Source: Planctomycetota bacterium
GTDB taxonomy: Bacteria > Planctomycetota > UBA8108 > UBA1146
DNA: 64,000 nt
Direction: 5' to 3'
Assembly: GCA_028825265.1 (NCBI GenBank)
Contig: JAPKAM010000001.1
Location: 386 to 64,385, forward strand
Made by a program: the position numbers and the translations under genes. This document shows positions 1,004 through 27,800 of this stretch, piece by piece. Each line of letters starts with the position of its first letter. Position 1 is the stretch's first letter. Under the pieces are notes generated by a model. That model had not been told where the DNA came from, ran no database searches, and saw only the letters and a program-made list of their open reading frames with translations.

Positions 1004-2797
1004 TTGCTTCCCAGTCGAAGGCACTCCCCCGGCGACACCACCGATGCGGGGAGTTCACACGACGAGACCCGGCCGTTGAAGGTTCCTCGCCTCGACCAGA
1101 TCGGTTCCTTCTCCATCGAGGAGAAGATCGGTGAGGGCGGAATGGGCGTGGTCTATCGTGCCCGCGATCCGCGGTTGCAGCGAACCGTCGCCATCAAGCG
1201 GATCCATCCTCGCTTGCAAGAGAGCGTCGACATCCGAGAGCGGTTTCTGACCGAGGCTCGAGCCATCGCTGCCGTCAGTCACCCGAACATCGGCCAGATT
1301 CACGCCATCCACGAGGATGAAGATCCTCCCTATCTGGTGATGGAATTCCTCGAGGGGCCCAGCTTCGAGATCCAGGTCGAAAAACACGGCCCCCTGTCAT
1401 CTGCGGAAACGATCCGCATCGCCATCTCTGCCGCTCATGCGCTACGTGCTGCAGTCAGAAGCGGCATCATTCACAGAGACGTGAAACCATCGAACCTGCT
1501 GCAAGATGCTCGGGGAGTCGTCAAACTGGTGGACTTCGGGCTGGCCGGAAACCTCGGCGAAAATCCTCAAGACGATCCAGAATTATTGTGCACTCCCCAG
1601 TACGGATCTCCCGAACAGATCCAGGGTTGGGCTCTCGACGAGCGCTCGGACATCTACAGTCTCGGTGCCACGATGTTTCACTTGCTCACCGGGAAGCCGC
1701 CCTTTGAACGAGAATCTCGGGTCGATTTGATGGTCGCCCAGGTCAACGAACCCGCCAAGTTTCCTTCGTCCCTTCGTTCAGACATCCATCCGGAACTGGC
1801 ACTGCTGATCCTTCGGATGCTGGAGAAGCGTCCGGAAGATCGACCCCATGACCATGGTGAACTACTGACGGAGTTGGAGCAGTTACAGCGGAAGATCGCC
1901 CCCCCCGCCAGAACTCGTCTGACCGTTAGGCAGATCTCGCTGGCAGTGACACTGCTCCTCGGCGCCATCCTGCTGGGGACCTTCTGGCCCGAACCTCGAT
2001 CAGAAACCGGGATCCAGGTCGATGGCACCCTGCGGGGGATCCTCTCCAGTGCGGCCCCCTACGAACTACTCTCCTACGATTTCGATGGGGGCGGAGATCG
2101 CATCGAACGTTTCTTCAGATTTCCCGCCCTCCCCGAGAATGCCGGGGGGCATGTCCAGATCGCTCCCGTGGTCCGCGACGGCACATTACTGTGGGCTAAT
2201 GATCCACGTGCGATCTCCTTTCCTTACCTGAAGGAACTACGCAGGTGGCGCATCGATGGACTACGTTGCCTCGGCACTCCCGATCTGGAACTGAGAACGG
2301 CTCAGGATCCGGAACGACCCGGAGATCGACTGCGGATCGGTCTGGCGGTGGGACGCGGTGTCGCTCCGCGCATCGAGGTACTTCAAGGTGGAATACCCGT
2401 TCCCATCGAGGTGGAACAGCAATCGCAACTGACATTCATCCGGGAGGGTGTCGATCATTCCATCACCCTCGATCGAAGACCCTCCGAGGACCCTACGCGG
2501 GCCAGATACCGCCTCCAGATCTCGCGTCAGGACGGTTCCACAGATCTCGAATCCGCCAATCTCAACTCCGCCAATCTCGACTCCGCCAATCTCAATCCCA
2601 CCGATCTCAATCCGACCGGACTCATTTCGACCGTGACCTTCACTTTGCCAGTCGATGCGATTCCACGGGGAGCTCCTGCGATTCGTTGTGAAGGAGATCT
2701 GGCACGCTGGAATACTCGCATCGGCAGGGTACAAATTCTTGGTCTCCTCGACCGGGATCGCATCATGCGTAGCTGGATCCTGGAGGGCGGACCTTGA
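1004..2797 (+). CDS. Membrane Ser/Thr protein kinase (Hanks type) with one TM segment and C-terminal pentapeptide repeats
   Basis: Kinase motifs are present: GEGGMGVVYRARD (Gly-rich loop), AIKRI (Lys), HRDVKPSNLL (catalytic loop), DFGLA, SPEQ. TM segment ISLAVTLLLGAILLGTFW. Pentapeptide repeats ANLNSANLDSANLNPTDLNP are encoded by 15-bp DNA tandem repeats near 2530-2620. The start (TTG at 1004) is uncertain. Confidence 0.85.
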   Translation: MLPSRRHSPGDTTDAGSSHDETRPLKVPRLDQIGSFSIEEKIGEGGMGVVYRARDPRLQRTVAIKRIHPRLQESVDIRERFLTEARAIAAVSHPNIGQIHAIHEDEDPPYLVMEFLEGPSFEIQVEKHGPLSSAETIRIAISAAHALRAAVRSGIIHRDVKPSNLLQDARGVVKLVDFGLAGNLGENPQDDPELLCTPQYGSPEQIQGWALDERSDIYSLGATMFHLLTGKPPFERESRVDLMVAQVNEPAKFPSSLRSDIHPELALLILRMLEKRPEDRPHDHGELLTELEQLQRKIAPPARTRLTVRQISLAVTLLLGAILLGTFWPEPRSETGIQVDGTLRGILSSAAPYELLSYDFDGGGDRIERFFRFPALPENAGGHVQIAPVVRDGTLLWANDPRAISFPYLKELRRWRIDGLRCLGTPDLELRTAQDPERPGDRLRIGLAVGRGVAPRIEVLQGGIPVPIEVEQQSQLTFIREGVDHSITLDRRPSEDPTRARYRLQISRQDGSTDLESANLNSANLDSANLNPTDLNPTGLISTVTFTLPVDAIPRGAPAIRCEGDLARWNTRIGRVQILGLLDRDRIMRSWILEGGP

Positions 2798-4665
2798 GCA
2801 CTAGCCTCCACATCTGTACTCCTTCCGGCGGTTTTTATGTCGTCGAGATCTCGGTCGAACAAGCGATGAATGATGGACTGGTCATCGGCCGGGATCCCGG
2901 TGCTGACGTGACCATCGACGATGACGCTGCGAGTCGCTTTCACGCCCGCTTGAGTTGTAAGGACCAACGCTGGTACATAGTCGACCTGGAGTCATCCAAC
3001 GGCACCTATCTCAACAATGATCCTGTCCGACAATCGGAACTCGCACCTGGCGACTTGCTCGCCATCGGAGATAGCGAGATCCGACTCGAAGCGGCGATCT
3101 CAACCGCCTCGGAATCCCTTTCCAGAACCCAGGTAGTGCACCGAATCGATGTCGCTCCCGAGGAGTTGGACGGCAAACGAGCCGCCCAGGTGCTGGGAGC
3201 CCTGCACTCCTGCGCCCCGCTGTTGGGTCGCTCAGCCGAGGAGAACTCAGCGCGCCTGGAGAAAGGTCTACGGCTGCTGGTCGAAGGCACGAATGCGGAT
3301 CGGGGGGCCATCTTGATCAGTGAAAAAGAAGGTTGGCTCTGTCGCTCTGCATGGTCGCGTAGCGGAACCCCGATGCATGGATTCGTTCTGAGCCACACGA
3401 TTCACAGCGAGGTGATGCAATCCCGGCGAGCCGTGATCTCGCGTGACACCACCGAAGATCTCCGATTTGCGGACCGCCGGAGCGTCGTCGGAGATGAAAT
3501 TCGCTCGGTGATCGCGGCTCCGATCCCGGTCCACGATGGAATCGGAGGGATTCTTTACCTCGACCGCCTCGACGGAGACCAAAGACCCTTCGGCGACGAG
3601 GAATTGTGGGGCTCTGGAGTCGCTGCAGGAATCATCGGAGCGGGCTTCTCGGTCGGTGAAGAATTGATCGAGTTGTCCAGCGATCGTAAAGAACTGGTTC
3701 GAACCGTGATCGACTCGATGCCCATCATCGGGAACTCGCCGCAAATCGATCAAGTTCGCAACTTCATAAGAAAAACAGCTCCGACTGAAGGCACCGTGCT
3801 GATCCGGGGAGAAACCGGCACCGGTAAGGAACTGGTCGCCAGGGCGATCCACTACCAGGGCAGTCGTGCTGCGGCTCCCTTCATCGCGATGAACTGTGCC
3901 GCAATTCCTGAAAACCTGGTCGAGAGTGAACTGTTCGGCCACGAGAAAGGTGCCTTCACCGGTGCCGATCAGCGAAAGGCTGGCAAGTTCGAGGCCGGAT
4001 CGGGAGGAACAGTCTTCCTCGATGAAATCGGGGAACTGCCCACCTCTGCACAGTCTAAGATGCTCAGGTTACTCGAGGAAAAAAGATTCGAACGAGTCGG
4101 TGGCAACAACTCCGTCGAGGTCGATGTGAGAATCGTCGCCGCCACCCACCGTGACCTGCAAGAAGAGGTCGCACAGGGTCGCTTTCGTGAAGACCTGTAC
4201 TATCGACTTGCGGTGCTCGAAGTGGTGGTGCCGCCGCTCCGTGATCGACCCGGTGACATCGACTTGCTGGCAGAACACTTTCTCGATCTCTGCTGTGGGA
4301 GAAGTCGCCAGCGCAAGCAACTTTCTCGCAATGCCATGACTGCGATGCGGTTGCATTCGTGGCCTGGCAATGTTCGCCAGTTGAGAAATGTCATCGAGAG
4401 TGCCGTGATCCTGTCTCCCTCAACATTACTGGAAGTGGATGATCTTCGTCTCGATCACACCGCCAGCCGAAAGCCAAATCCATCGCCGACCCCGGAGTGG
4501 CAACCGGTCTCGATGAAGGAACTGGAGAGAGAGCACATCGCTCGGGTGCTCAATCATGTGAACTGGAACAAGAAGCGCGCGGCAGAAATTCTTGGAATCG
4601 AACGCTCCACGCTGTACTCGAGAATTCGCAACCTGGATCTGGAGCCGAGTAAGGGTCCCTCATGA
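2794..4665 (+). CDS. Sigma-54-dependent transcriptional activator with FHA, GAF, AAA+ (sigma54 interaction) and Fis-type HTH domains
   Basis: FHA motif VIGRDPGADVTIDD...SRFHARL...SSNGTYLN. Walker A GETGTGKE. Intact GAFTGA (GHEKGAFTGA). ESELFGHEKG. C-terminal HTH AAEILGIERSTLYSRI. Its ATG overlaps the kinase stop (ATGA at 2794-2797). Confidence 0.9.
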   Translation: MSTSLHICTPSGGFYVVEISVEQAMNDGLVIGRDPGADVTIDDDAASRFHARLSCKDQRWYIVDLESSNGTYLNNDPVRQSELAPGDLLAIGDSEIRLEAAISTASESLSRTQVVHRIDVAPEELDGKRAAQVLGALHSCAPLLGRSAEENSARLEKGLRLLVEGTNADRGAILISEKEGWLCRSAWSRSGTPMHGFVLSHTIHSEVMQSRRAVISRDTTEDLRFADRRSVVGDEIRSVIAAPIPVHDGIGGILYLDRLDGDQRPFGDEELWGSGVAAGIIGAGFSVGEELIELSSDRKELVRTVIDSMPIIGNSPQIDQVRNFIRKTAPTEGTVLIRGETGTGKELVARAIHYQGSRAAAPFIAMNCAAIPENLVESELFGHEKGAFTGADQRKAGKFEAGSGGTVFLDEIGELPTSAQSKMLRLLEEKRFERVGGNNSVEVDVRIVAATHRDLQEEVAQGRFREDLYYRLAVLEVVVPPLRDRPGDIDLLAEHFLDLCCGRSRQRKQLSRNAMTAMRLHSWPGNVRQLRNVIESAVILSPSTLLEVDDLRLDHTASRKPNPSPTPEWQPVSMKELEREHIARVLNHVNWNKKRAAEILGIERSTLYSRIRNLDLEPSKGPS

Positions 4666-5435
4666 TTCCCGTGATGCTCGCCTCCTGGATCGGATTGTTG
4701 CTGCCATTGCCGCAATCCGATCAGTCGATGATTCCCGCCGGACAGATCCCGGTAGGCATCTTGCTTCAGGGCTGGAGCCTGGCCACCGATCAGCAGGTGA
4801 TCTCGGAGAGTTCAATCCTGGGCCATCGATCGATCCTGTTATTGCGACCGCTGGCCCTTTCCACCTCGACCAGCACCATGCTCCTGAGAGCACAACTGAA
4901 GCAAGCGGGCATCGAACTGAAGCCGATCCGCCGCGGACTGGTTCGTGGTCCCCACTGGGCCACCACCGATCCTGACGCAGAGCCGCCGCTGGCTCGCTAT
5001 CAGATCCGGGTGATCCCGCTCCAGCACCTGGATCCGGAACCGATCTGCCAATTACTACGAGAAGACGCTCGCAAGCGCGAGCAAGAGATCGGACCGCTCG
5101 ATCGGTACAGTCGCTTTGTTGCCGATCCTCGGACCGGCTCGGTCATCATCTCCTGTACCTCTGCTCGGCGTCTCGAACAGTACCTGAAACTGCTCTCCGC
5201 GGCAGACTGTCCACCGGTGGCGGGGACCCAAAGGCCCGTGCTCCGCAACTGGTCCACCCGCTTTGGCCGCGCCAAGGAACTGGCCCTGGAACTGGATCGA
5301 GCCTGGAAAGAGCGCGGCGGACGGCCGATTCACGTGGTCGCCCATCGAGCCTCCAATAGCCTCATGATCCGGCTGCCCAAGCACCTCTGGCCCGCCGTCG
5401 AGAAGCTCCTCGATCAACTGGATCGCCCTTCCTGA
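4662..5435 (+). CDS. Hypothetical exported protein with one Secretin_N (NolW-like) type domain; possible T2SS accessory protein
   Basis: N-terminal hydrophobic signal or anchor MIPVMLASWIGLLLPLP. The segment YQIRVIPLQHLDPEPICQLLRE...DPRTGSVIISCTSARRLEQYLKLLSAAD follows the secretin-N domain pattern. Its start overlaps the activator stop by 4 bp. Confidence 0.45.
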   Translation: MIPVMLASWIGLLLPLPQSDQSMIPAGQIPVGILLQGWSLATDQQVISESSILGHRSILLLRPLALSTSTSTMLLRAQLKQAGIELKPIRRGLVRGPHWATTDPDAEPPLARYQIRVIPLQHLDPEPICQLLREDARKREQEIGPLDRYSRFVADPRTGSVIISCTSARRLEQYLKLLSAADCPPVAGTQRPVLRNWSTRFGRAKELALELDRAWKERGGRPIHVVAHRASNSLMIRLPKHLWPAVEKLLDQLDRPS

Positions 5436-5570
5436 GAGCCACTCTTGCCGGCTCCGTTGTGTTCGATTATCAAACACTCTCCACCCCAGATCAGTCAGAA
5501 GATCTCTCGTGATGGTTACCGGAATATGCATAACTCCTTTAATAAAATAAAGTTGTGGAACTTGCCCGGT

Positions 5571-5597
5571 TGGCATGGACGGGCATTTCATTTGCGT
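5571..5597 (+). promoter_or_regulatory. Candidate sigma-54 promoter (-24 GG / -12 GC) upstream of gspD
   Basis: Sequence TTGGCATGGACGGGCATTTCATTTGCG. GG at 5582-5583 and GC at 5594-5595 are 10 nt apart (GGGCAT-N5-TTGC), and an overlapping TGGCAT lies at 5572-5577. An AT-rich tract (TTTAATAAAATAAAG) lies just upstream. The site is ~150 nt 5' of the secretin ORF. Confidence 0.35.
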
Positions 5598-5745
5598 AAT
5601 GATGCTCAGACCAGTGTTTCCTCGCACTTGAGGAACCCAGAGGTCGACAGCGCGGCCTCGTGTTGGATCTTTCCCGCCAGAGGAATCCTGGATCTCCCCG
5701 AAAGAGATTTCCCGATCCAGCCGATCAAAGGAAACAAGAGTCGCC

Positions 5746-8100
5746 ATGAACCCGACGACGGAAGGGTGTGTCATAATGGCCCGCAATTCGAAGGTCTCCA
5801 CAAGCGAGACCCTGATCTTTACCTCCTGGATGGCCCCATTGGCCCTTCTGGTACTGTTCATCACCCTCAGCATCGTACTTCCAACTGCCATGCTGGCTCA
5901 GGATCCTCCCGATCCCGTCTCCGAAGAAGAGACGAGCGAGGAAACGGCCCGCGAAGGAGCCGCCACTGCTGCCGGAGCGAACGATTCGGATGTCTCCAAC
6001 CCGGCCATGTACCGAATGGAAGAAGGCAAGTTCCCCGTTCTGAGCCTGATGCGCTTCATCCAGCGCACCTCTGGCAAGTTCGTGAACTATCCCTCCGCTG
6101 GCAAAGATCCTGCATTTGCAGAGGAAACATTTGTCGATGTGGTGGGCGATGTCGATCCGCTGACCTATCCCATCGTCCAGGCGATTCTCGAGACCAACGG
6201 TTACGAGTTGTGGGAAAGCACACTCGATGACGGCACCGTGGTGATCAACGTCCGAGCAACCACCGCACGGACCCAGCCGCCCTCTGATCCGGTCAGCCCC
6301 ATCATCGAGGCGGGTTCCGATCAGGTCTCCGAGTCCGGCGATGAACTAGCAACGCTGGTCCTGCAACTGAAGCATGTCGAGACTGCAGTGGTTCGTCAGG
6401 CTCTCCAAGAGTTGCTCGGAATCCAGGGTGCCGGAAGTCAGAGTGGCAGTCTCAAGATTGTGACCGTGACCAATAACGAAACCCTCATCATCAAGGCCAA
6501 GATGCGCGTTCTCGATCACATCCAACGACTGGTCGAATACATCGATGTCGAGGTCCGTGGTCCCGAAGAGTTGCTCGTCATTCGCGAACTTTTTTACGCC
6601 GATGCCCAAGATATCGTGAGCATTGTCCAGGAAGCACTGAGTGACACATCATCCGCTGGATCCACGGGTCGTAGGACCTCAACTCCAACCTCCCAGGCAG
6701 GACGTGGCGGCAGCACCGCCAACCGGGGTTCAGTCGGTCGCGGAACTGGGCAAGTGGGAGAATCGACCCGCTTGATCGCTGACAATCGCACCCAAAAGAT
6801 TCTGATCCAGTCCTCGGACCCGGCAGAACTCGATCTGGTTCACCAGTTGATCGACGAACTCGACACCAAGGTGAGAAACATCCGCAACACAACCTGGATC
6901 TACAAGGTCAACTACCTCAAGGCAGAGGAACTGGCGGATAACATCCGGCAATTGGTCGAAGGATCGGAAGGATCCCTGCGCCGTGGATCCTCCAGCCGTG
7001 GCGGCACGAGCCGAACCTCCGGCCGAGGAACCACTGGTGGAGCCGGCGGAGTGCAGCAACAACAACAGTTCACTCCAACGCGGATCGTGCCCCACGAACA
7101 AACCAACTCGTTGATCATCCAGGCCGAGCCGGAAGAGTACGAACAGATCGAGGCCATCCTGAAACAGATCGACAAGCGTCGTCGTCAGGTATTCCTCGAG
7201 GTCGCCCTGGTGCAGGTGAAGGACAGTTCCAGTCTCAACTACACCCTCGAATTCCTCGCCGGAAACCTCGATGACCAGGCACTGACCGGCATCCTCTTGA
7301 GCTCCTTCGGTGCCAGTGAGGTCATCCCCAATGTCGATCCCAATGGCGTGATCACTGGAGTCAACAGAATCCCCGGCATCGGCGGGGCAGGACTCAACGC
7401 AATACTCCAGCAGGACGGTCAGTTCCCGTTGATCATGAGTGCCTTGAAGTCCGATGAGGATTCCAACATCCTCGCCACGCCGTTCATCCTGGCGGACGAC
7501 AATCAGGAGAACTCGATCTCGGTTCAAAACGAGATCTTCTACACCAGTTCTAACACCACCAACGTCAACACCACCACTTCTCAGCAATCAGAAAGTGCCG
7601 GAATCACTCTGTCACTGATCCCCACCATTTCCAGTGAGGTCGTACTGCTGGAGCTAGAGTTGGAAGTGTCTTCCTTCTCAGGGGTCTCCAACTCAACCGG
7701 CGCCCTCCCCGATCGATCGACGAATATCATCAGTTCAAAGGTGACGATTCCAGACGGCGGAATGTTCATCATCGGTGGATTGGCTCAAATGGCCGAATCG
7801 GAGGTCAAGAGCAAGGTACCCCTGCTGGGAGATCTTCCCTTCATCGGCACCCTGTTCCAGTCGAGTGGCTCTAACTCTACACGTGACAACCTGTACGTGT
7901 TCCTGAGTGCACACATCCTCGATGATGATCACTTCAATAATCTCGGCGACTTCACCAAGGACGCGATCCACGGGGTCCGTTCCTTCCAGGATGATCTGAG
8001 ACTTCAGCAGTTCACCGATCCAAATAACAAACGCGACCAGCAACTCGCTCCCTTGATCCGGCCAGGACTGACAGCCACCGAGGCGGAGAAAACACCATGA
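5746..8100 (+). CDS. gspD: Type II secretion system secretin GspD (N0-N3 domains plus secretin domain)
   Basis: Signal-like N-terminus. Repeated secretin-N modules (e.g. TWIYKVNYLKAEELADNIRQL). Canonical secretin motif VPLLGDLPFIGTLFQ and ...NLYVFLSAHIL. Confidence 0.9.
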   Translation: MNPTTEGCVIMARNSKVSTSETLIFTSWMAPLALLVLFITLSIVLPTAMLAQDPPDPVSEEETSEETAREGAATAAGANDSDVSNPAMYRMEEGKFPVLSLMRFIQRTSGKFVNYPSAGKDPAFAEETFVDVVGDVDPLTYPIVQAILETNGYELWESTLDDGTVVINVRATTARTQPPSDPVSPIIEAGSDQVSESGDELATLVLQLKHVETAVVRQALQELLGIQGAGSQSGSLKIVTVTNNETLIIKAKMRVLDHIQRLVEYIDVEVRGPEELLVIRELFYADAQDIVSIVQEALSDTSSAGSTGRRTSTPTSQAGRGGSTANRGSVGRGTGQVGESTRLIADNRTQKILIQSSDPAELDLVHQLIDELDTKVRNIRNTTWIYKVNYLKAEELADNIRQLVEGSEGSLRRGSSSRGGTSRTSGRGTTGGAGGVQQQQQFTPTRIVPHEQTNSLIIQAEPEEYEQIEAILKQIDKRRRQVFLEVALVQVKDSSSLNYTLEFLAGNLDDQALTGILLSSFGASEVIPNVDPNGVITGVNRIPGIGGAGLNAILQQDGQFPLIMSALKSDEDSNILATPFILADDNQENSISVQNEIFYTSSNTTNVNTTTSQQSESAGITLSLIPTISSEVVLLELELEVSSFSGVSNSTGALPDRSTNIISSKVTIPDGGMFIIGGLAQMAESEVKSKVPLLGDLPFIGTLFQSSGSNSTRDNLYVFLSAHILDDDHFNNLGDFTKDAIHGVRSFQDDLRLQQFTDPNNKRDQQLAPLIRPGLTATEAEKTP

Positions 8101-12503: not shown

Positions 12504-13420
12504 TGTCACAAAAAGGATTCACCCTCATCGAACTGATCGTGGTACTGGGGATGTTCACCATCGTGATGTCGATGTGCTACACGATCCTCGACACCACCCT
12601 TGAGGCGGATCGAAGAATCCAGAAGGCCACTCTCACCGGCAAGGTTGGAGAGGCGATTCTCGGCCAGATGAGACGCGATCTTCAGGGCGTCGCCTGGCGT
12701 GGTCTCGGAACAGATGTTTTCCGTGGTGAAGATCGTGGCCAGGATGAGAATGCCGAGGACTCGATCGATTTCATCACCACTTCACCGGTGGCTGAGCCCT
12801 CAGAGGACACCCCCAACTGGACCGGAGAACTCAGTTCCATCGGCTACGCACTGCGACCAGGAAAAGATGGAGACAGCGTGCTGTTTCGCAGGATCTCGTG
12901 GGATCTGACCGAGGATTCTTTCGATTCCGGCGAGCGAAGTGCCATCTACGACCGAGTGATGGCTCTCAACTTCGAGTTCCTCGGAGAGGAGGGCGAGTGG
13001 CTCCAGGAGTGGGACGCCTCGACCTTGCTGCCGGACCAGAATCTGACCGACTTCCCCTACCTCGATGAGAGGGCGGCCATCGCAGCGATGGAAGCGGAGG
13101 AAGCGAGTGGGTCAGGCGGCGCGACCGGCGCATCGGGCACGGAGACCGGCACGGCGCCAGGATCGGTCCTGCAGCCGGGTGATATCGACCCCGCAACTGG
13201 CGAGGAGATCGTCGAGGAGCCGCTCCCACGACCTCTCCCCAGGGCTGTCCGCATCGTTCTTTACCTGCACTACAGCAATGAACAGGGACAGATCCTCAAC
13301 AACGATGGAACCCCGTTTGAGGAAGTTTTTTCGACCATCATCCCCTTGCTCTCTGCGGAGCAGATCCTGGTCGAGGATCCTGCATCCTTGCTGCTCGAGG
13401 GGAGCAACAGCAGCTTCTGA
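12503..13420 (+). CDS. Minor pseudopilin (GspJ-like by position) with acidic low-complexity C-terminal region
   Basis: MSQKGFTLIELIVVLGMFTIV prepilin N-terminus. Follows the GspI-like gene with a 1-nt overlap. Confidence 0.65.
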   Translation: MSQKGFTLIELIVVLGMFTIVMSMCYTILDTTLEADRRIQKATLTGKVGEAILGQMRRDLQGVAWRGLGTDVFRGEDRGQDENAEDSIDFITTSPVAEPSEDTPNWTGELSSIGYALRPGKDGDSVLFRRISWDLTEDSFDSGERSAIYDRVMALNFEFLGEEGEWLQEWDASTLLPDQNLTDFPYLDERAAIAAMEAEEASGSGGATGASGTETGTAPGSVLQPGDIDPATGEEIVEEPLPRPLPRAVRIVLYLHYSNEQGQILNNDGTPFEEVFSTIIPLLSAEQILVEDPASLLLEGSNSSF

Positions 13421-13451
13421 CAACACGACCCCACCGAATGCATCAATGGAG

Positions 13452-13530
13452 GGGCCTCCGGAAGGATATGGCAAGAACTCGGATTGCGTGATCCCCAGGT
13501 TCGAGCCCCGGAGGCCCTACTTTTCTTCTC
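13452..13530 (+). terminator. Candidate complex terminator or structured RNA downstream of the gspD-J operon
   Basis: 10-bp perfect inverted repeat GGGCCTCCGG (13452-13461) / CCGGAGGCCC (13508-13517) encloses ~46 nt. It is followed by TACTTTTCTTCTCC (U-rich). Confidence 0.35.
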
Positions 13531-13653
13531 CAGATGCTCCTAGACGTACCTACAGCGGTAGAAGAGTATTTGACAGAGGGCCCTGCAACTGTGCCAAAAT
13601 CGCACATGCCCCCTCCCTAGGGCCCCATTCAAGCCTCTCCAGAGGCCCCTTTT

Positions 13654-13670
13654 TGGCACTGATGATGCTC
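13654..13670 (+). promoter_or_regulatory. Candidate sigma-54 promoter (TGGCAC-N5-ATGCT)
   Basis: TGGCACTGATGATGCTC. Perfect -24 hexamer TGGCAC at 13654-13659. GC at 13667-13668 is 10 nt after the GG. It is oriented toward the Kelch lipoprotein gene, ~450-530 nt away. Confidence 0.3.
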
Positions 13671-13730
13671 TCTATCAACTGGAGAGGGTCTTGCCGAGAG
13701 ATCGATTTGGAAATCGACTTTAGACAGCCT

Positions 13731-13870
13731 TCATCGACCTAGCAGCCATCGACCTAGCAGCCATCGACCTGGCGGCGACGGTGGACAGGGTTGCGCCGGA
13801 GAACTACAATCCGCCACTTGAGGAGAAGGTACTCCTGGAACTGAAGATACTCCTGGAACTAACGAGGAAC
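13731..13870. repeat. Short tandem repeats in an intergenic region
   Basis: AGCAGCCATCGACCT occurs in ~2.5 copies at 13735-13775. TACTCCTGGAACT x2 and GAACTAACG x2 occur at 13822-13870. Confidence 0.7.
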
Positions 13871-14116
13871 TAACGGGCCTAGGGCATCGAGCCTCGGGCG
13901 CGGTTACGGGAAATCGTGTATCGCTGGTCTGATTCGTGGTCTGCGGGGTTCCTGCCCCGACCGTTACCCGTGAAATCGCGGGCGGTCTGCAGGACAGGAC
14001 CAGATCAGATTTTACATTCTCGTCGATGAGCATCGGCAAACGATGGCGTCAAACTGAGCCCCACTTCGTATTGAGTTTGGCGACCGTCGGTCGCCACTTG
14101 GAAAGAGCAGAAACGC

Positions 14117-16018
14117 ATGAGCCCCCACGTCAGATCTCATCCGGAGTTTCACGGCTTCACCGATCGTCAAACCTCTCACTTCAGATGGATGGGTCTACTC
14201 ACCATCTGCCTTCCTATGCTGCTGGGATTCGTCGGATGTCACGGAGACATCAGCTCGGTTCCAAACATCAACAACGCTGCTGCGTTCCTCGAAGATAATG
14301 CGACATACATCGGCCCTTCGATGGTTTCTCCGCGTTATGGACACACGGCGACCACTCTTGAAGACGGAACCGTACTGGTGGTCGGTGGAAGTGATGAGAG
14401 ATTCCTCACCTCCCTCGATGTTTCAGAGATTTTTGACCAAGGAGCCAGTGTCGGTCTCAACCAAGCGATTCCCGACACGGTTTCCGGAGACTTCATCGAT
14501 ACCGATGTCGAGGGCAATCTGATGCTGCTCGCCCAAGGTGGCCGAGTCTTCCATACCTCCACCCTGCTACCCAACGGCAATGTGTTTATCTGCGGTGGAA
14601 CCGGAGATGCCCTGTTTGCCCAGGCCACCGAGGTGTCCGAGATCTACGACATCAGCAGTCGTGAATTTGCCCCGGATTTCCTCCAGTTGAACCAGGACAT
14701 GTCCATTCCGCGATTCCGCCACAGCGCCACTCTCCTGCCCAACGGCCGAGTTCTGATCGCTGGAGGCCAGGAATCAAGGTCAGAGACGATCATCGATCCG
14801 AATTTCGCACCGGGCCAACCCGGTTTCCAGGTCGATATCAACGTCTTCCCCTCTCTCAAGTCGATGGAGATTTTCGATCCCGGAGCCCTCGCCTTCATCC
14901 CCGCCATCTCGGCCAACGGTGACGATGCCGAATTCCTCAGTGCACGCGGTCGGGCGGGACACAGCATGCAAGGATTGGCTGGATTTGATGGGCTTCTGGG
15001 AACCACCGATGACATCCTCCTCAGTGCCGGGGGATTCCAGACTCTCTCGACCATCTTCGCTCCACAGTTCAAGATGCCATGGCAGCAGGACACCAGTAAC
15101 TCGGCCAATTTCGAGTACTTCGATGCCACCACAGGAGATAACCGGATCGCCGCGGGCATCGTCGCCGCTGAACGTGTCAACCAACCACAAATCATCAACC
15201 TGGGTATCCATCGCAGGTCGACCCTGGAGTTCGACTTTGATCCCGAGGATGGAATTATCGACATCCCCTCGATCGATGGATTGAACAATATCGTCCTGAT
15301 TGCAAATGGTGACAACGACGATCCTGCTTGCCCCACTGGTAGTGGAAGCAACGATCTACTGGTCGCCACTTTCAGCAATTTCGGACCTTCCAACGGACTG
15401 ACCTTTTCCCTCTTTGGCGGTGAGGCCACACTCTTCAACAACATCGAGTTGATCGTCTTCGACCCGATGAACTGTGCGTCCTTCTCTCGTAGTGAGGCAG
15501 ACCTGGTTCAGGTGCAAACTCGTCGGACTTACAATGGAGTAACGATCGCCACGACCGTTGGATTGAGCGCCGGCGGAGCCTTCGAACTTCCCACGCCCAA
15601 TGGTTGTGTCGAGTTGATGCAGGGTACCTGCGCCAACGGAATCGTCGGCGTGAGCATTTACGATCCGTTCTACAATGCGGCGAATGACCCCCCCTGGGAT
15701 CCGACCGACAACATCAATCCGATCACGCACCCGACTGGTATCTTCGGCACCTTCATCAACGTCGATGGAGTGATCGCGGATGACACCTTCGATGGGTTCG
15801 CCGACGGAAGCCTCCTGATCGCTCTGGCGCAGGCAAAGGTGCTTCACACTTTGAGTGTGGTTCCAGGTGAAGATGGCGTCCTCAACAGTGTCGATGACCG
15901 GGTCGTGTCGATCGGGGGCGGCGTCAGCTACTTCCCGAACTTTGGCGATGAACCGGCCACCATCAACTGCGAAGTGATCATGCTGCCAGGAACCAATGCG
16001 ACGAATCCGACTCCGTAA
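14117..16018 (+). CDS. Kelch-repeat beta-propeller lipoprotein
   Basis: The probable true start is M at 14189 (MGLLTICLPMLLGFVGC, lipobox LGFVGC). Kelch-type repeats: RYGHTATTLEDGTVLVVGG, FHTSTLLPNGNVFICGG, RFRHSATLLPNGRVLIAGG. Confidence 0.75.
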   Translation: MSPHVRSHPEFHGFTDRQTSHFRWMGLLTICLPMLLGFVGCHGDISSVPNINNAAAFLEDNATYIGPSMVSPRYGHTATTLEDGTVLVVGGSDERFLTSLDVSEIFDQGASVGLNQAIPDTVSGDFIDTDVEGNLMLLAQGGRVFHTSTLLPNGNVFICGGTGDALFAQATEVSEIYDISSREFAPDFLQLNQDMSIPRFRHSATLLPNGRVLIAGGQESRSETIIDPNFAPGQPGFQVDINVFPSLKSMEIFDPGALAFIPAISANGDDAEFLSARGRAGHSMQGLAGFDGLLGTTDDILLSAGGFQTLSTIFAPQFKMPWQQDTSNSANFEYFDATTGDNRIAAGIVAAERVNQPQIINLGIHRRSTLEFDFDPEDGIIDIPSIDGLNNIVLIANGDNDDPACPTGSGSNDLLVATFSNFGPSNGLTFSLFGGEATLFNNIELIVFDPMNCASFSRSEADLVQVQTRRTYNGVTIATTVGLSAGGAFELPTPNGCVELMQGTCANGIVGVSIYDPFYNAANDPPWDPTDNINPITHPTGIFGTFINVDGVIADDTFDGFADGSLLIALAQAKVLHTLSVVPGEDGVLNSVDDRVVSIGGGVSYFPNFGDEPATINCEVIMLPGTNATNPTP

Positions 16019-17141
16019 CTCGAAGCTGATCGACCGCTCACCTCATCGGCTTCCGGTGAAGTCCACCTCGAGGATTCGAGGATGGGGTCAATCGGGTCGC
16101 GTCCACAGCGCCATCCCCACCGTGCTCGCTCTGGTGGCTCTCGGCTGGGTGCTGGCGTACCTGTGGATCCCGACCCGATCACCTCAAACCAGCAGTCCCC
16201 AGACTGGGGTCACAGAAGTGATCCAGAAGAATCGATCGGGATCCCCGGCCACCGACTCCACCGGAACCACAGCTTCGGAAGCCCTCTCCCCACTCGACTC
16301 CCTCTCGCCGCAGATGAGAACCATTCGCGAGCAGTTGGACCGCTTGTTTCTTAAGACACAATGGAATCAAGCGATGGACGCGTCCACCGCTCACAGGGTG
16401 GCTCGAGCTCGTGAAGACCTGGAATCCTATCTCGATTCGCTCGCAGAAGAACATGTCCCGCTGCTGCTGGGCTTGCTGGCAGAAGAACCCGATTTCATCA
16501 ACCGCCGCTTCTTGCTTCGAGCGCTCGGGAAGATCGGGAACGATGAAGCTCTCGCAGGACTGCTGGATCATTTCAACTGGGCTGCAGGAAACTCCAAGGA
16601 AAGCGAAGTCAAGCACACCGTGGCGGCCCTCGCGGCAGCCAACAATGACCGATCTTTCCAGATTCTGAGCGACTACGCTGTCGCGGAGGAGACCGAAACC
16701 CACCGCTATCGATTTGTCGGTGCTCTCACCCAGCACTCGAGATCCGCCGATGCGATCGGGATCTACTCGGAGTTACTGACCGATTCTTCGCACTTCAGAG
16801 TGCGCCAGCGAGCCGCTTTTGGGATGAAGATCTCGGGCGGGATCGCACAGGCTCATGAGGTAGAAACAGCCCTTGTGGATGAGGGCAATCCATACGTTCG
16901 ACAATCATTCCTGGGGGCTCTCGGAGGCATACGAGATGTACGATCGGTTCCCCTGGTTAGCCGTATCCTGCAAGGGGATGAGGTTCTGGCCACCCGCGTC
17001 TCTGCAGTCAGGGCCTTGCTTCGCATCGAGGGAGATGCGGTGGTAGACGCCTTGAGGGCTGCCCGCGATGACATTTCTCAGCCACAGAGGGTCCACGAAG
17101 AAGTGCTCCGAGCCCTCGATTCGTTGGGAATCTCTGGCTAA
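15996..17141 (+). CDS. HEAT/PBS-lyase-type repeat protein with N-terminal membrane anchor
   Basis: TM segment IPTVLALVALGWVLAYLWI. Repeated ...RxxAxxALGxIG... units: RRFLLRALGKIGNDEAL, VRQRAAFGMKI, VRQSFLGALGGIRDVRSVPLVSRIL, RVSAVRALLRI. The start is uncertain (ATG 15996 overlaps the upstream gene; GTG 16057 is an alternative). Confidence 0.65.
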   Translation: MRRIRLRNSKLIDRSPHRLPVKSTSRIRGWGQSGRVHSAIPTVLALVALGWVLAYLWIPTRSPQTSSPQTGVTEVIQKNRSGSPATDSTGTTASEALSPLDSLSPQMRTIREQLDRLFLKTQWNQAMDASTAHRVARAREDLESYLDSLAEEHVPLLLGLLAEEPDFINRRFLLRALGKIGNDEALAGLLDHFNWAAGNSKESEVKHTVAALAAANNDRSFQILSDYAVAEETETHRYRFVGALTQHSRSADAIGIYSELLTDSSHFRVRQRAAFGMKISGGIAQAHEVETALVDEGNPYVRQSFLGALGGIRDVRSVPLVSRILQGDEVLATRVSAVRALLRIEGDAVVDALRAARDDISQPQRVHEEVLRALDSLGISG

Positions 17142-17256
17142 CGGGTCCGAGGCACTCTTGAGAATCGGCCGCTGCGATGTCACGATCCTACTCATGGCAG
17201 GACCCCGGTGCCTTCAGCACTGGATCACATCCCCAGAAGATGCAAGGAGAGGCTCG

Positions 17257-19401
17257 ATGATCTGGCAACTTTGGAAGCCACCATCATCTCCATCTCCGAT
17301 CGGACTGCTGCTGCCCCCGCTGCTTCTCCTGCTGCTGCTCGGTGTCATCGGCTGTCAACCGACCTCTCATCCGGCACTGATCTCGGCACGGATCGACGGC
17401 CTTCTCGAAGACGGGCTGGGTGAAGGAGATCAGATCATCCTGGTCCTCGATGCTGCGCTGGAACTGACTGCAAGCCCCCGCGTCGGTCTGATGATCGAGG
17501 GCGCCACGGGCTCGGAACAGTACTCGTTTCACAGTACAGAGGACCACAATGTACTCATCGTCGAACTCGAATCGGGGTTTGACCATCTCGACCTGATCAA
17601 TTCCGATCGCTCCGTGCTGGTCTCCCTGGACCTTGGCTTGCTGGGTCTCAAGGACGACCTTGGACAACCCCTCGAAGGTGTGGTGGGACCGGCGATTCTG
17701 CAACTCCCTGTGGCAGAACCGGCGATTCTTGAGGATGCCCGCTGGATCGATTCCGATCGCAGCTCCACCGTCAATCGGGAAGACTTGCTAGTGCTTCGCT
17801 GGAATCAACCGGTCCACTTCTCGCAGACCCTACGAGATCGCAAACTCCAGATCTCACCCAGTCTGATTCGACTTTCGGTAAAAGGGGATCAGCTGGGATC
17901 TAGCAGGATTCCTGCTCGTTTCCTCGATGGTCCTTCCTCCAGAGAAACCAGCATCCTGCTGGGAGAACTTCCCTTTCTCACGATCGATGGGATGCACGAG
18001 CACAGTCGATCGAGATTTGAAGGCTCCCCCAGTGCCATCGCCGTGACGGGCACCACCATCTTACCCTCGCTGGATCTGGTCACCGATCAGGGAGGAGGGG
18101 TGGCTTCGCCGGTAGTGGTGGATCTGGAGGGAGAATGTGCACCCTGGCAAGACCTCGAATTACCTCCGGGGTTACCGGCGCTTGCGGGGCACTCTCTGAC
18201 TCGATTGCCAGGCGGCAAGGTACTGATCGCTGGTGGCCGAGCGCTGATGGCAGGATCCTCCGGAAGGGCGCTGGCCAGCGCCTGGATCATCGATCCACTA
18301 GGAAATCACCAGGGGCCCATCTCGATGCAAGCGGCGCGTGCCGACCACTGCGCGACTTTGCTCCCCGGAGTCGACGGGTTGCTGGAAACCAATGACGATC
18401 TGGTTCTGATCACCGGCGGCTGGGATGGATCTCGGGCTCGTGATGACGCCGAAGTACTGCTTTTTTCCGCTGAAAATAGCCACTTCATTCCGGTCGAAAC
18501 CAGTGCCCCTTCCAGTGCAAGATTCGATCACTCGGCCCATCCGATTGCTCAGTTGAACACCGTGATCCTGGTGGCTGGTCGCCTCGATGGAACTTTGAAC
18601 GGACTCATCGAACAGGTCGAGATTGAAATCCTCGACAGTGACACTGGACCGAAGGCGATCAGCACGACCTACCAGATCGGTGAGTTGCGCTATCCAAGGC
18701 ACCAGCATGGTTCGATTCTGTTCGAAGATTCCGAACAACCGCTGCTGCTACTCTATGGTGGCTACGGTGGATCCCTCGGTACTCCACACGTCCAGTTTGA
18801 TACGGAGCACTGCCGGGTCCTCGACAATCCTGAAGCATTTCGGATCCGTGCCGACTCCAGGACCACTCGTGCCCTCCTGATCGATGAGCCCGAGTTAAAC
18901 TTGCCGGGACCTCGTCGCGGCTTGCGGCTCCATTCGATTGGAGATAGTTCCTCCCAGGGAAACCGGGCCTTGCTGATCGCGGGAACACGCAGAGAACCCA
19001 ATCCGGATGCGTTGACCCCATTTCAACCGACCGAATGCAGGACCAGTTATCTTCTCGAGCAACAGGATACGAAATTCGGTCGCATCCGGTTGCGTTGGAT
19101 TCCAGCGGGCAGACTTCCGGTCGAACTCTACCAGCCCAGCATCGTGGGACTTCCTGGTGGCAGGATCCTGATCGCTGGTGGCTATGACCGCGGTGGACTT
19201 CCAACATCGGAAGCGGCGATCTACGACCCCTTCTCGGGAGTTGTGGAGCGGGTGTGCAAACCTCTCAGCAGAGAATCCGCCCAGGGCGAAGAATTGCTGC
19301 TAGCACCGCAGTCCGTCGCATTGTGGGGGGGAGCACTGATTATAGCCGCTTCGCCGGAAAGCCGCACCAGTCGGGCATTGCTGTTCAAGTCAGGAAACTG
19401 A
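17257..19401 (+). CDS. Kelch-repeat beta-propeller lipoprotein, paralog of the 14189 gene
   Basis: Start M at 17257 (MIWQLWKPP...LLLLLLLGVIGCQ, lipobox). Kelch-like repeats: LTRLPGGKVLIAGG, HCATLLPG..VLITGGWDG, RHQHGSILFEDSEQPLLLLYGGYGG, LPGGRILIAGGYD. Confidence 0.75.
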   Translation: MIWQLWKPPSSPSPIGLLLPPLLLLLLLGVIGCQPTSHPALISARIDGLLEDGLGEGDQIILVLDAALELTASPRVGLMIEGATGSEQYSFHSTEDHNVLIVELESGFDHLDLINSDRSVLVSLDLGLLGLKDDLGQPLEGVVGPAILQLPVAEPAILEDARWIDSDRSSTVNREDLLVLRWNQPVHFSQTLRDRKLQISPSLIRLSVKGDQLGSSRIPARFLDGPSSRETSILLGELPFLTIDGMHEHSRSRFEGSPSAIAVTGTTILPSLDLVTDQGGGVASPVVVDLEGECAPWQDLELPPGLPALAGHSLTRLPGGKVLIAGGRALMAGSSGRALASAWIIDPLGNHQGPISMQAARADHCATLLPGVDGLLETNDDLVLITGGWDGSRARDDAEVLLFSAENSHFIPVETSAPSSARFDHSAHPIAQLNTVILVAGRLDGTLNGLIEQVEIEILDSDTGPKAISTTYQIGELRYPRHQHGSILFEDSEQPLLLLYGGYGGSLGTPHVQFDTEHCRVLDNPEAFRIRADSRTTRALLIDEPELNLPGPRRGLRLHSIGDSSSQGNRALLIAGTRREPNPDALTPFQPTECRTSYLLEQQDTKFGRIRLRWIPAGRLPVELYQPSIVGLPGGRILIAGGYDRGGLPTSEAAIYDPFSGVVERVCKPLSRESAQGEELLLAPQSVALWGGALIIAASPESRTSRALLFKSGN

Positions 19402-24699: not shown

Positions 24700-24716
24700 C
24701 GGCAGATCTCATGCCA
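24700..24716 (-). promoter_or_regulatory. Candidate sigma-54 promoter upstream of the gspK operon
   Basis: Minus-strand reading TGGCATGAGATCTGCCG: GG-N10-GC spacing, -24 TGGCAT, -12 CTGCC. The -12 element is ~27 nt 5' of the gspK start codon. Confidence 0.3.
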
Positions 24717-24861
24717 TTCTATAGCCCGCAGAGCCTTCCTCTGAGAACTACGATGATCCTATAAGCCTTTTCATCACAATAGTTTATGGCCATGGTCCGA
24801 AAATCTCAAATGAGGTCCGCCGGCACTCTACCCGTTTTCGAGTAATGAGTGTTCGGAATCA

Positions 24862-27800
24862 CTACATCGGAGACGATTCGGCAGCCGCTGGCGCCGGCAG
24901 ATCTGGCTTTTTCGCCTTCAGGATGAAGGAGAGCACCACCGGTAACACGATCAGGGTCAGCACGGTCGATACGGACAGCCCGCCAACGATCGCCTTCCCC
25001 AGCGTATTGAACTGGGGCCCAGTCAACATCTGGGTTCCATAGGCCATAGGAATCAATCCCAGCACCGTGGTCAGTGCGGTGATCAGAATCGGGCGCAAAC
25101 GATCACTCGCTCCCTTGCGGATCGCAAGGATGGGATCGATGCCTTCATCGAGTCGTCGACGCACCTGATCGATCAATACGATGCCGTTATTGACCACGAT
25201 ACCGCAAAGCAAGATCAAGCCGACCGCAGCCGGAGTATCGAGCGAGTCACCCTGCAGCCAGAGGGTCCAGATCACTCCAGGAATCGCCAGTAACACCGTG
25301 ACCATCAACACCAACGGCGTCCGGAGAGACTCAAACAGACAGGCGAGAACCAGGTAAACCAGGAACACCGACAGGTACAGCCCCTCGCCAAAGGAACTGC
25401 GATTCCTCCAGCGACCAGACCAGCCCTCTCCCAAGTCCCAGCTATACCCCACCGGCCAGGGATATTCAGAAAGTGCCATCTCTAGCCTCTGTTGGATCTG
25501 ATCCTTACTACTTGGATCGTACTGCGCCGACACCGTCAGGTTGGCGAGGCGCTGATCACGACGTCGTCGATTGGGAGCCTCGACCTGCTCGACCTTTCCG
25601 ATCTCCTGGATGGGAAGTTCAAGAGTATCGGTCAGAGGAAATCTCATGAAGTTCAGTTCCTGGACTGAATCGGTCTCATCCTCGTCGAGTCCGAGAGTGA
25701 TGTCGAAGTCACCAGACTGGGTTCGAAGTTGACTGAGGCGATTTCCCGCAAAGGCTGAACTGATGCTACGAGCGACCGTATCCCCCGACACCTGCAAACG
25801 ACCGAGCAGATCTTCATCGGGTTCCAGTCGCAGTTCATCGACCTCATCTTCCCCTGCAACTTCTGCTTCGATGATGCCCTCGACTCCCCTCAGGTAAGTG
25901 GCCACCTCGATTCCCAATTCATCGAGGAATGAGCTGGAATCACCGGCCAGTCGAATTCGAAAGGAACCAGCGGAAGATCGCGAGCCAGCGCCGTGGCCTC
26001 GACCGCCCCAGCCCCAACCATCGTCGGTACGGATCCTAAAGCCGGGAACCTTCGGAAGAACCTCATCGATGCGACCTCTCAACTCGGCGATGTAATCCTC
26101 CGTCGCAATCTCGGGCGGTGGATAAATCCTCGTCAGAGCGTAGCCATCTTTGTACCAGGAATAGATGTCGCCTTCCCCGATGACATCTCTACGACTCGCC
26201 AGAAGATTCTCGATATCGGTGACCGTTTTTTCCATCTCCCTGTAGTCGAGACCCTCGACCGGGCGGTATGAGATGTTCGCGTAATTGGATTTCCAGTCCG
26301 CATCGGACATGTCCATCCTGAATCCATTCTCGAATGGGATCACGACACTCAGGGTTGCTGCCACCGCTACGGTCAAAGTCGCCCTTCGATGTGTCAGCGC
26401 GGATTTCAGCAGTTTCTCGTAACCAAGACTGACCTTCTTGAACCAGGAGGATTTTCCGGGGTCGCCACCGCTATAAATTCTTGCGGCCACCATCGGTACG
26501 AGGGTCAAGGAGACAAACAAACTCGCTGCGATGGTCAGAGAGATCACCAGACCGACGCTGGCCAGGGCATCCGAGAATCCATTTCTCTCCGAAATGAAGA
26601 CCGGTAAGAACACCACCATCGTCGTCAGTGTGGCTGCGAACACGGGAGTTGCGACTTCCAGCGTTCCAGTGGTCGCTGCCGTCACCGGGTCATCTCCGAG
26701 GCCTGCACGTCGGACAATCGACTCCACCACCACAACCGCGGTATCGACCAGCATCCCGACTCCGAGCATCAATGCCATGATGGTGATGATGTTCAGTTCC
26801 TGGTCGAGAAAGTGAAGTACCGCCAGTGCAGCCAGCACCGAGATCGGGATGGTCATACCCACCAACACCGTGGCAGAAATTCGCCGCAAGAAGATCAGCA
26901 GGATCATCAGGGCCAAGCCGCCACCGATGAAGCCGGCATCTCGCAGGCGCGCCAGTGAACTGACGATCATCTGACCCTGATCCTGCCAGACCAGAAGGTT
27001 GATTCCTGCCAGTTGAGGATCCTGAGAGATCCTCTCCACTTCGGCTCTGACATTCTTGCAAACCTCGACCGTATTGGCACCGGCCTCCTGAGAGATCTCG
27101 AGGGAGACTGCATAGGAGCCATTAAGATGGCGTCCCCAGCGCAATTCTCCTTCCTTCTTCTCTATGGTCGCCACCTGCCCCAGCCGCAATCCATTCCGAT
27201 TGATCGGCAACTGGCGCATCGCTTCTATATCGGGAAGGGCATTGATCAGCCGAAGGCGACGAGTCTTCCCATCGCTCCAGACTCTTCCGATGGTGGCGTC
27301 GACATTCGAGTTTCGTATCGCCTGGGCGACCCGACCGAGTGTCAGGCCATGTCTTTCCAGGTCACCCTTGGTAAAGGAGATCCGTACCTCCTTGGGCGTC
27401 ACACCATCGAGTGCCACCTGCCCGACACCATCGAGTCGCTCAAGAGGACGCTGGATCCGATTGACCAACAGGTCGTAATTTTCTGACAGGTTGATTCCCA
27501 CCGCACTGATGCGAGCCTCCATGATGGCATCTGCATCTGCACCCCAGCCTCCGGTGCTCAATCGGATCCGATCCAGATCTTCCAATGGAAGTTGTTCCTT
27601 CGCCCGTGCCAGTCGCTCTCGTATCTCGACCTTGACCTGATCGAGGTCCTCTCCGTAATCAAAACGAAGAGTGACCCGTCCATTTCCCTCCCTCGACTCG
27701 CTGTTGAATCCACGCACCCTCCGGAGCGTAGCTAGGGCTTCCTCGAGCGGCCTCACCACCTCATTTTCAACCTGTATCGGAGAGGCATTGGGATAGGGAA

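Follow-up and report, generated by a model that had tools for sequence, protein, structure and literature searches.

Putative sigma-54 promoters, including one upstream of gspD, in a planctomycete type II secretion cluster

The element at 5581–5596, upstream of gspD in the 64-kb window (the whole stretch of Planctomycetota DNA that was analysed), is likely to be the -24/-12 element of a sigma-54 promoter, PgspD, serving gspD-E-F-G and the pseudopilin genes. It is very probably one of three sigma-54 promoters around the type II secretion cluster. From the inverted repeats found upstream of each, the three promoters probably share an upstream activator site. As a bacterial switch this is coherent, if of a fairly ordinary sort.

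The gspD element, GGGCATTTCATTTGCG, is on the forward strand and consists of GGGCAT, the spacer TTCAT, and TTGCG. The GG at 5582–5583 and the GC at 5594–5595 give the spacing GG-N10-GC, and the -12 element is TTGC; both features had been claimed in an earlier note on this DNA and are confirmed. The element lies in the 310-nt gap (5436–5745) between a gene encoding Secretin_N domains (4662–5435) and gspD (5746–8100), on the same strand as gspD and 150 nt before its ATG at 5746. The match to TGGCAC-N5-TTGCW is moderate, with 8 of the 11 specified positions in agreement. There is a G rather than a T at -26, a T rather than a C at -21, and a G at -11, and because of these three mismatches the element is missing among window matches with two or fewer. 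Positions -26, -21 and -11 are weakly conserved in the consensus.

A scan with a sigma-54 weight matrix, a check that had been proposed in the earlier note, gave the gspD element a moderate score of 10.5 out of a maximum of 20.9, which places it only at about rank 15 of 128,000 window positions; the matrix is approximate, being modelled on the published consensus. A total of 16 sites in the window score 10.5 or more, against 8.9 ± 2.9 in Markov-1 simulations, and most of those that outscore the gspD element are within genes. The probability of one match scoring at least 10.5 on the forward strand of 310 nt of the same composition is about 0.017. The single-sequence evidence alone is therefore suggestive. 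The overlapping TGGCAT that had been pointed out is present at 5571–5576, but can be dismissed as a -24 element: the partner is one base out of register, its matrix score is -2.8, and its GG is not conserved, with TGCCAT, TGCCGT or TGGTGT in many loci.

Related loci were collected by a scan with GspD, taking one genome per species. This gave 25 loci, nearly all from metagenome-assembled genomes labelled as marine Planctomycetota, in which GspD is 56–90% identical to that of the window. Six more, at least one of them a duplicate, came from searching metagenomes with an alignment of the small Secretin_N protein, and all six fall inside the diversity already sampled by the genome loci. Exactly one GGC[AG]T-N5-TTGC is found per gap in 23 out of 23 genome loci and in 6 out of 6 metagenome loci that include the gap, although these amount to perhaps 6–8 independent lineages rather than 29, since many of the loci are close relatives. 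Where the start codon could be located, the motif is 115–204 nt from it. There are seven sequence variants of the element, with the spacers TTCAT, TCCAT, TTCTT, TTGAT, CCAGT and CCTGT; the -11 position can be G, T, A or C, and one locus has TGGCGT.

An alignment of the intergenic gap (24 sequences, 545 columns, mean column identity 54%) shows the element to be its densest invariant stretch, with 9 of 15 columns invariant; the next best 15-column stretch has 5. The invariant columns read GGC.T....TTTGC and there are no insertions or deletions between the GG and the GC in any of the 24 sequences. Within the element the spacer varies, as do positions -11, -22 and -26, which is also the pattern of sigma-54 promoters. 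Even in L020 and L022, the most diverged of the loci, where the flanks cannot be aligned, GGCAT or GGCGT followed by N5-TTGC is still there. The core positions are thus invariant even though GspD itself varies, in keeping with the earlier reading of a sigma-54 promoter for the secretin operon. Four coding-region matches of equal or higher score (at 1941, 2412, 4750 and 6099) served as controls in the same loci. Their GG and GC survive in only 3/21, 4/21, 4/22 and 7/17 orthologues, with a negative median score. It is the conservation that settles the case for the predicted gspD promoter element. In the main clade the 60 nt at 5544–5604 are nearly invariant, which means that part of this conservation does not come from sigma-54 contacts.

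Upstream of the element is a candidate enhancer, the dyad GTGTTCGAT-T-ATCAAACAC at 5459–5477, which has the form TGT-N11-ACA. It is a near-perfect 19-bp palindrome in which the TGT and the ACA are invariant in 24 sequences. The distance from the dyad to the GG is 122–123 nt in 22 loci and 130–132 nt in L022 and L020, about one helical turn further, and the centre of the dyad is about 139 nt upstream of the predicted transcription start. This is the sole instance of GTGT-N11-ACAC in the window. Neither GTGTTC-N7-GAACAC nor TGT-N11-ACAC is enriched in the window as a pattern; the weight of the dyad patterns comes from their position and conservation.

Three further blocks lie between this dyad and the element. 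The box CACCCCAGATCAG (5482–5494, forward strand) is situated between the dyad and a second repeat, 98–99 nt from the GG. The second repeat is an imperfect dyad, GTTACCGGAATATGCATAAC (TTACCGGA..TAAC), at 5515–5534, also at a fixed distance from the GG: TTACCGGA is 65–66 nt away in 22 loci and absent from L020 and L022. This dyad is a candidate for a second activator site or for the site of a bending protein, and a block resembling it, TTTTCGGACCATGGCCATAAAC, is found upstream of the promoter at 24716 described below. Nearest to the element is an A-rich block, AAAATAAAGTTGTGGAACTT (5544–5563, forward strand, approximately -63 to -44), which is partly conserved and has 5 invariant columns. Between the conserved blocks the sequence varies freely, yet there are almost no insertions or deletions from the first dyad to the element. 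Blocks held at fixed distances with few indels suggest a constraint on spacing, such as enhancer DNA looping would impose.

An AT-rich tract in this region had been described as a possible site for IHF or for an upstream activator. The tract is present at about 5538–5552 and is partly conserved (AAATAAAGTTG), but when 5530–5580 was compared by eye on both strands with the IHF consensus WATCAANNNNTTR the best match was about 6 of 9 positions, which is not convincing. As an enhancer, the dyad at 5459–5477 is the better candidate, and it lies further upstream than the region (5521–5600) to which the note had been confined.

The genes preceding gspD encode a potential regulatory system. A Hanks-type Ser/Thr protein kinase (1004–2797) is followed by an enhancer-binding protein with FHA, GAF, AAA+ (Sigma54_activat) and HTH_8 domains according to Pfam (2794–4665), and then by a small protein with Secretin_N domains only (4662–5435). 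All are on the forward strand, the stop of the kinase gene overlapping the start of the activator gene and the start of the small gene overlapping the activator stop. The secretin gene, gspD (5746–8100, forward strand, from Pfam), is the first of gspDEFG and the pseudopilin genes, which extend to 13420. Pfam matches in this operon are to Secretin, Secretin_N, T2SSE, T2SSF, T2SSG and N_methyl, with a weak match to T2SSJ. The earlier note had placed a sigma-54 activator next door; it is indeed nearby, but one gene removed, with the Secretin_N gene between.

The Sigma54_activat match of the activator has an E value of 2.8e-72. Its translation reads GETGTGKE, DEIGE and GAFTGA, the last beginning at nt 3949, so that the GAFTGA and Walker motifs are intact. 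It is the only protein in the window with GAFTGA, and GAFTGA or GSFTGA is present in 20 out of 20 covered activator orthologues. By a published criterion, an intact GAFTGA loop marks a true sigma-54 activator and not a sigma-70-dependent look-alike (PMC3162934). In each of the 20 loci whose flanks extend far enough, the genes follow the order kinase, activator, SecN, gspDEFG. This synteny, the intact GAFTGA or GSFTGA, the dyad at a fixed distance and two more promoters of the same build bear out the proposal that promoter and activator may form a coherent module. A search for an RpoN box in the window and in L001–L025 was negative, which carries little weight given the roughly 20 kb covered per genome. 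The related, cultured planctomycete R. baltica carries rpoN (RB6491; PMC2754498).

The second sigma-54-type site is TGGCACTGATGATGCT at 13654–13669 on the forward strand, made up of TGGCAC, TGATG and ATGCT, with a matrix score of 13.3. Its neighbours are gspJ on one side and a Kelch-repeat gene at 14117 on the other. Of 21 loci, 18 have TGGCAC-N5-nTGC in the corresponding position and three have variant sites. A TGT-N11-ACA dyad, TGTGCCAAAATCGCACA (13590–13606), is 65 nt upstream of the GG, and in 16 loci with a site of this type a TGT-N11-AC[AG] dyad is 65–89 nt upstream of it. Rfam returned nothing relevant on 13380–14150, and ARAGORN nothing on 13300–14200.

The third site is on the reverse strand at 24716–24701: TGGCATGAGATCTGCC, made up of TGGCAT, GAGAT and CTGCC, with a matrix score of 14.1. 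The gap that holds it separates an AcrB-like gene from an operon on the minus strand (24674 down to 19572), whose products are a PilX_N/GspK-like protein, an unknown protein, a PilM_2/GspL-like protein and a small protein. Orthologous regions were fetched through homologues of the GspK-like protein. In 7 out of 7 of these sequences TGGC-N8-TGCC is invariant, as is a dyad of the form [GT]GTAG[TC]G...ACAC. The dyad in the window, TGTAGTGATTCCGAACAC (24849–24866, reverse strand), again has the TGT-N11-ACA form, with 151 nt separating it from the GG downstream. L038 and L039 share this layout, with a downstream protein of only 40% and 34% identity.

The TGT-N11-ACA pattern occurs 7 times in the 64-kb window, against 8.7 expected, and 3 of the 7 are upstream of the three promoters, 65–151 nt from their sites. 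If 7 sites were placed at random, the probability of 3 falling within the approximately 300 nt concerned is estimated at about 1e-5. The half-site TGTAGCGAT is common to the 24849–24866 dyad and the gspD dyads of L020 and L022. In addition, TGTAGTGATTCCGAACAC closely resembles the dyad upstream of gspD in L020, TGTAGCGATCTCGAACA, a likeness suggesting that one DNA-binding protein may act at both promoters. We infer rather than demonstrate a common activator, since the spacing between dyad and promoter differs (122 nt for gspD, 65–89 nt for the 13654 site and about 150 nt for the 24716 site) and the dyads share little beyond TGT and ACA.

It is unlikely that the conserved block upstream of gspD is instead the promoter of another sigma factor, housekeeping or ECF, or the site of an unrelated regulator, its likeness to a -24/-12 element being coincidental. 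The promoters of planctomycetes are poorly characterised, the conservation in the main clade spans 60 nt and so extends well past the sigma-54 core, and GGAACTT at 5558–5564 resembles an ECF -35 element. An ECF-type reading of this heptamer is only weakly possible, because the C of GGAAC is variable (about 8 loci have a G instead), and the diverged loci L020 and L022 lack the block but retain GGC.T-N4-TTTGC. A scan of 4400–6000 found no sigma-70-like -35/-10 pair. Against another sigma factor there are also the conserved GG-N10-GC at the two other cluster promoters, where the flanks are unrelated, and the constant linkage of a dedicated GAFTGA activator.

No terminator was found between the upstream operon and gspD, so read-through from the kinase-activator-SecN operon could also feed gspD. 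The sequence downstream of the element appears to form a structured leader. With the usual sigma-54 geometry, approximately 12 nt past the C of the -12 element, the predicted transcription start is at 5606–5609 on the forward strand. Single-sequence folds place the start of the structured gspD leader at 5609–5645 on the same strand, with GACC...GGUC around a hairpin; the GACC is at 5609–5612 and the hairpin, UUCCUC-loop-GAGGAA, is at 5618–5635. A hairpin is found at nt 11–30 of the predicted transcript in every main-clade locus. Its stem sequences differ between the loci and include UUCCUC/GAGGAA, CCUCCCG/CGGGAGG, UCCCUC/GAGGGA and UCUCUC/GAGAGA, this covariation having been judged by eye from single-sequence folds. 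RNAalifold gave a weak consensus, since the hairpins are out of register in the MAFFT alignment. Compared with shuffled sequences, the single-sequence fold of the leader shows no significant gain in stability (z = -1.2). It is the sequence that is conserved upstream of about 5606, whereas downstream the sequence varies while the structure stays. A switch from DNA-type to RNA-type conservation at this point would fit a start near 5606–5609.

The missing terminator and the conserved leader hairpins could also be taken to mean that the motif is a piece of a conserved RNA element within a read-through leader, and not a DNA signal. This is very unlikely, as conservation of the structural type starts only at about 5609, and what lies upstream of about 5606 is palindromic DNA dyads in which no compensatory changes were seen by eye. 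Furthermore, the exact sigma-54 spacing is present in every locus, and no Rfam family matched 5380–5830. A chance GG-N10-GC in intergenic DNA is least credible: although about 16 window sites, mostly coding, score as well or better and the single-sequence probability is only about 0.02, the motif is in 29 out of 29 orthologous gaps as the densest invariant block, and the chance matches in coding DNA decay among the same loci.

If 5581–5596 is the sigma-54 element that its motif and pattern of conservation suggest, sigma-54 RNA polymerase would sit on the GG (-24) and TTGC (-12) in a closed complex that does not open by itself. An oligomer of the FHA-GAF-AAA+-HTH protein would bind the dyad at 5459–5477, as suggested by the presence of this site at its fixed spacing, and may also occupy the second dyad at 5515–5534. 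From what is known of the family, DNA looping would then allow the GAFTGA loop to meet sigma-54, and ATP hydrolysis would open the promoter. Transcription starting near 5606–5609 would, from the pattern of structure, produce a leader about 140 nt long with the conserved hairpin at its beginning. The co-transcribed membrane Ser/Thr kinase probably sets the state of the activator through recognition of phospho-threonine by the FHA domain, a role suggested by domains and synteny, and a ligand of the GAF domain may likewise tune it, on the same grounds. The same activator probably fires the promoters at 13654, for the Kelch-repeat and HEAT genes, and at 24716, for the gspK/L-like genes, in which case one activator at three promoters would make the whole secretion cluster one regulon. 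The Kelch-repeat and HEAT proteins are possible secreted cargo.

A more comprehensive reading is held tentatively, and we regard it as about as open to doubt as to belief, with doubt slightly the heavier. The kinase and the FHA-GAF activator would be the dedicated master switch of a type II secretion regulon with three promoters sharing the TGT-N11-ACA enhancer, the machine being encoded in two convergent operons and the Kelch-repeat and HEAT proteins encoded between them being its probable cargo. The arrangement of kinase, FHA activator, three promoters and type II secretion was not found described in the literature searched.

Several known systems resemble parts of it. NifA-type promoters, such as that of nifH, combine a -24/-12 element with an upstream activator sequence TGT-N10-ACA. 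They are like the predicted gspD promoter in the GG-N10-GC core, in a TGT...ACA dyad about 100–150 nt upstream, and in an activator of the GAF-AAA+(GAFTGA)-Fis-type HTH build. They differ in the spacing of the dyad, which is N10 for NifA and N11 at all three promoters here, in the activator, which here has an FHA domain at its N terminus as well as a partner Ser/Thr kinase, and in the target, which is nitrogenase there and a secretion machine here. The gspD dyad therefore resembles a NifA-type activator sequence but, because of the N11 spacing and the FHA domain, is not classed as one.

PilR/PilS and sigma-54 control type IV pilin genes in Pseudomonas, Myxococcus and Geobacter. This is a likeness in that sigma-54 and a dedicated activator act on the type IV filament superfamily, which includes type II secretion. 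PilR is however a two-component response regulator and acts mainly on the pilin gene, whereas the activator here is of a kinase/FHA type and the promoters precede the secretin-ATPase-platform operon, the gspK/L-like operon and the Kelch-repeat genes. FHA-domain enhancer-binding proteins are known from Myxococcus xanthus and share the fusion of FHA, sigma-54 AAA+ and HTH domains, with a presumed input from a Hanks-type kinase. In the literature searched, neither target promoters nor a link to type II secretion were described for these proteins. Type VI secretion clusters use sigma-54 with cluster-encoded activators (VasH, Sfa-type), and separately a kinase-FHA control by PpkA and Fha1. They have a secretion cluster with its own activator, sigma-54 promoters, a Ser/Thr kinase and an FHA protein in common with the present case. 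Their FHA protein, however, acts post-translationally on the machine and is not the activator; in the present type II system the FHA domain is part of the activator itself.

For type II secretion itself, expression of T2SS-2 of Plesiomonas shigelloides falls in an rpoN mutant, which was described as a first report (PMC9743648). The evidence in that case is transcriptomic only and defines neither a promoter nor an enhancer nor a dedicated activator, so an indirect effect is possible (PMC9743648). The literature searched yielded nothing on sigma-54 control of type II secretion in Planctomycetes and almost nothing on gene regulation in Planctomycetota, on which little appears to have been published. 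The activators of Pirellula/Rhodopirellula were surveyed in silico by Studholme and Dixon in 2004, a study drawn on here as it is cited in PMC2754498.

Were the master-switch reading true, this would be the first defined direct control of a type II secretion system by sigma-54 and an enhancer, as well as the first case of a Hanks kinase feeding into it. The planctomycete lineage concerned is marine, widespread and uncultured, and is known only from metagenome-assembled genomes. With the putative promoter, the candidate enhancer and the linked activator defined to the nucleotide, the circuit is a testable one that could be rebuilt in E. coli. The Kelch-repeat genes, having the same type of promoter, may encode secreted cargo. 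The three promoters also provide a first lineage-specific view of sigma-54 sites, GGCA[CT]-N5-nTGC, which is usable for genome scans.

A hairpin element of approximately 75 nt lies directly 3' of gspJ (13448–13524, + strand). On folding it forms a long hairpin of about -41 kcal/mol with a closing stem of GGGGCCTCCGG/CCGGAGGCCCC; GGTTCGAGCC is found within the hairpin and a T-run follows 3' of it. The element is near-invariant among loci whose proteins are merely 55–90% identical. No covariation was present in the element across the loci, a search of Rfam with it returned no match, and the tRNA/tmRNA search made no call. The loops are too conserved for a plain terminator, and the element is therefore a candidate small RNA or protein-binding terminator.

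A conserved σ54-type promoter, TGGCACTGATGATGCT, is located at 13654–13669 (+), with a TGT-N11-ACA dyad, a candidate enhancer, at 13590–13606. The sequence TTGACA is invariant approximately 25 nt upstream of this dyad. Downstream of the promoter, in the interval that separates the secretion cluster's two halves, are the Kelch-repeat, HEAT, and Kelch-repeat genes (14117–19401), the products of which may be cargo of the secretion system. The other half of the cluster, the gspK-like/gspL-like operon running from 24674 down to 19572, is likewise preceded by a conserved σ54-type promoter, TGGCATGAGATCTGCC (24701–24716, - strand), with its dyad at 24849–24866. The first protein of this operon has an N-terminus that is approximately 27 residues longer than in most homologues, and the real start codon may therefore be downstream of 24674.

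Matches to the σ54 consensus are also found within genes. The perfect match TGGCACTTCGGTTGCA at 36633–36648 (+) is within the thiG coding sequence (36188–36991), with the next gene approximately 355 nt further on, and may be either a chance occurrence or an internal promoter. The one-mismatch sequence TGGCACTGATGCTGCT at 48135–48150 (+), which is within the ORF at 47753–48589 and scores 13.9 out of a maximum of 20.9 on an approximate σ54 weight matrix, is identical to the 13654 promoter in its first ten bases.

There are two in-frame ATG codons of gspD, at 5746 and 5776 (+). Across clades, the 30 nt separating them (ATGAACCCGACGACGGAAGGGTGTG..., region 5746–5790, +) are conserved at the nucleotide level, synonymous positions included. 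This suggests a role for these bases at the RNA level, for example as a ribosome-binding site (GGAAGGG) serving the second ATG.

Between the σ54 activator gene and gspD there is always a gene for a small protein, here of 257 residues (4662–5435, +), that has Secretin_N-type domains only. An ATGA overlap couples its translation to that of the activator gene. Possible functions of the protein are as a GspC-like partner, as a decoy, or in regulation of the secretin. In the Ser/Thr kinase, the extracytoplasmic C-terminal part contains a short repetitive stretch, ESANLNSANLDSANLNPTDLNPTGL (2450–2620, +), and the DNA of this region has a strongly negative GC skew of -0.27 to -0.29. One of the orthologous loci with the kinase-activator-SecN-gspD arrangement, L007 (QNYK01000009.1), comes from a record titled 'Bacillota bacterium', yet it is 67–80% identical to the planctomycete loci; the bin is probably mislabelled or contaminated.
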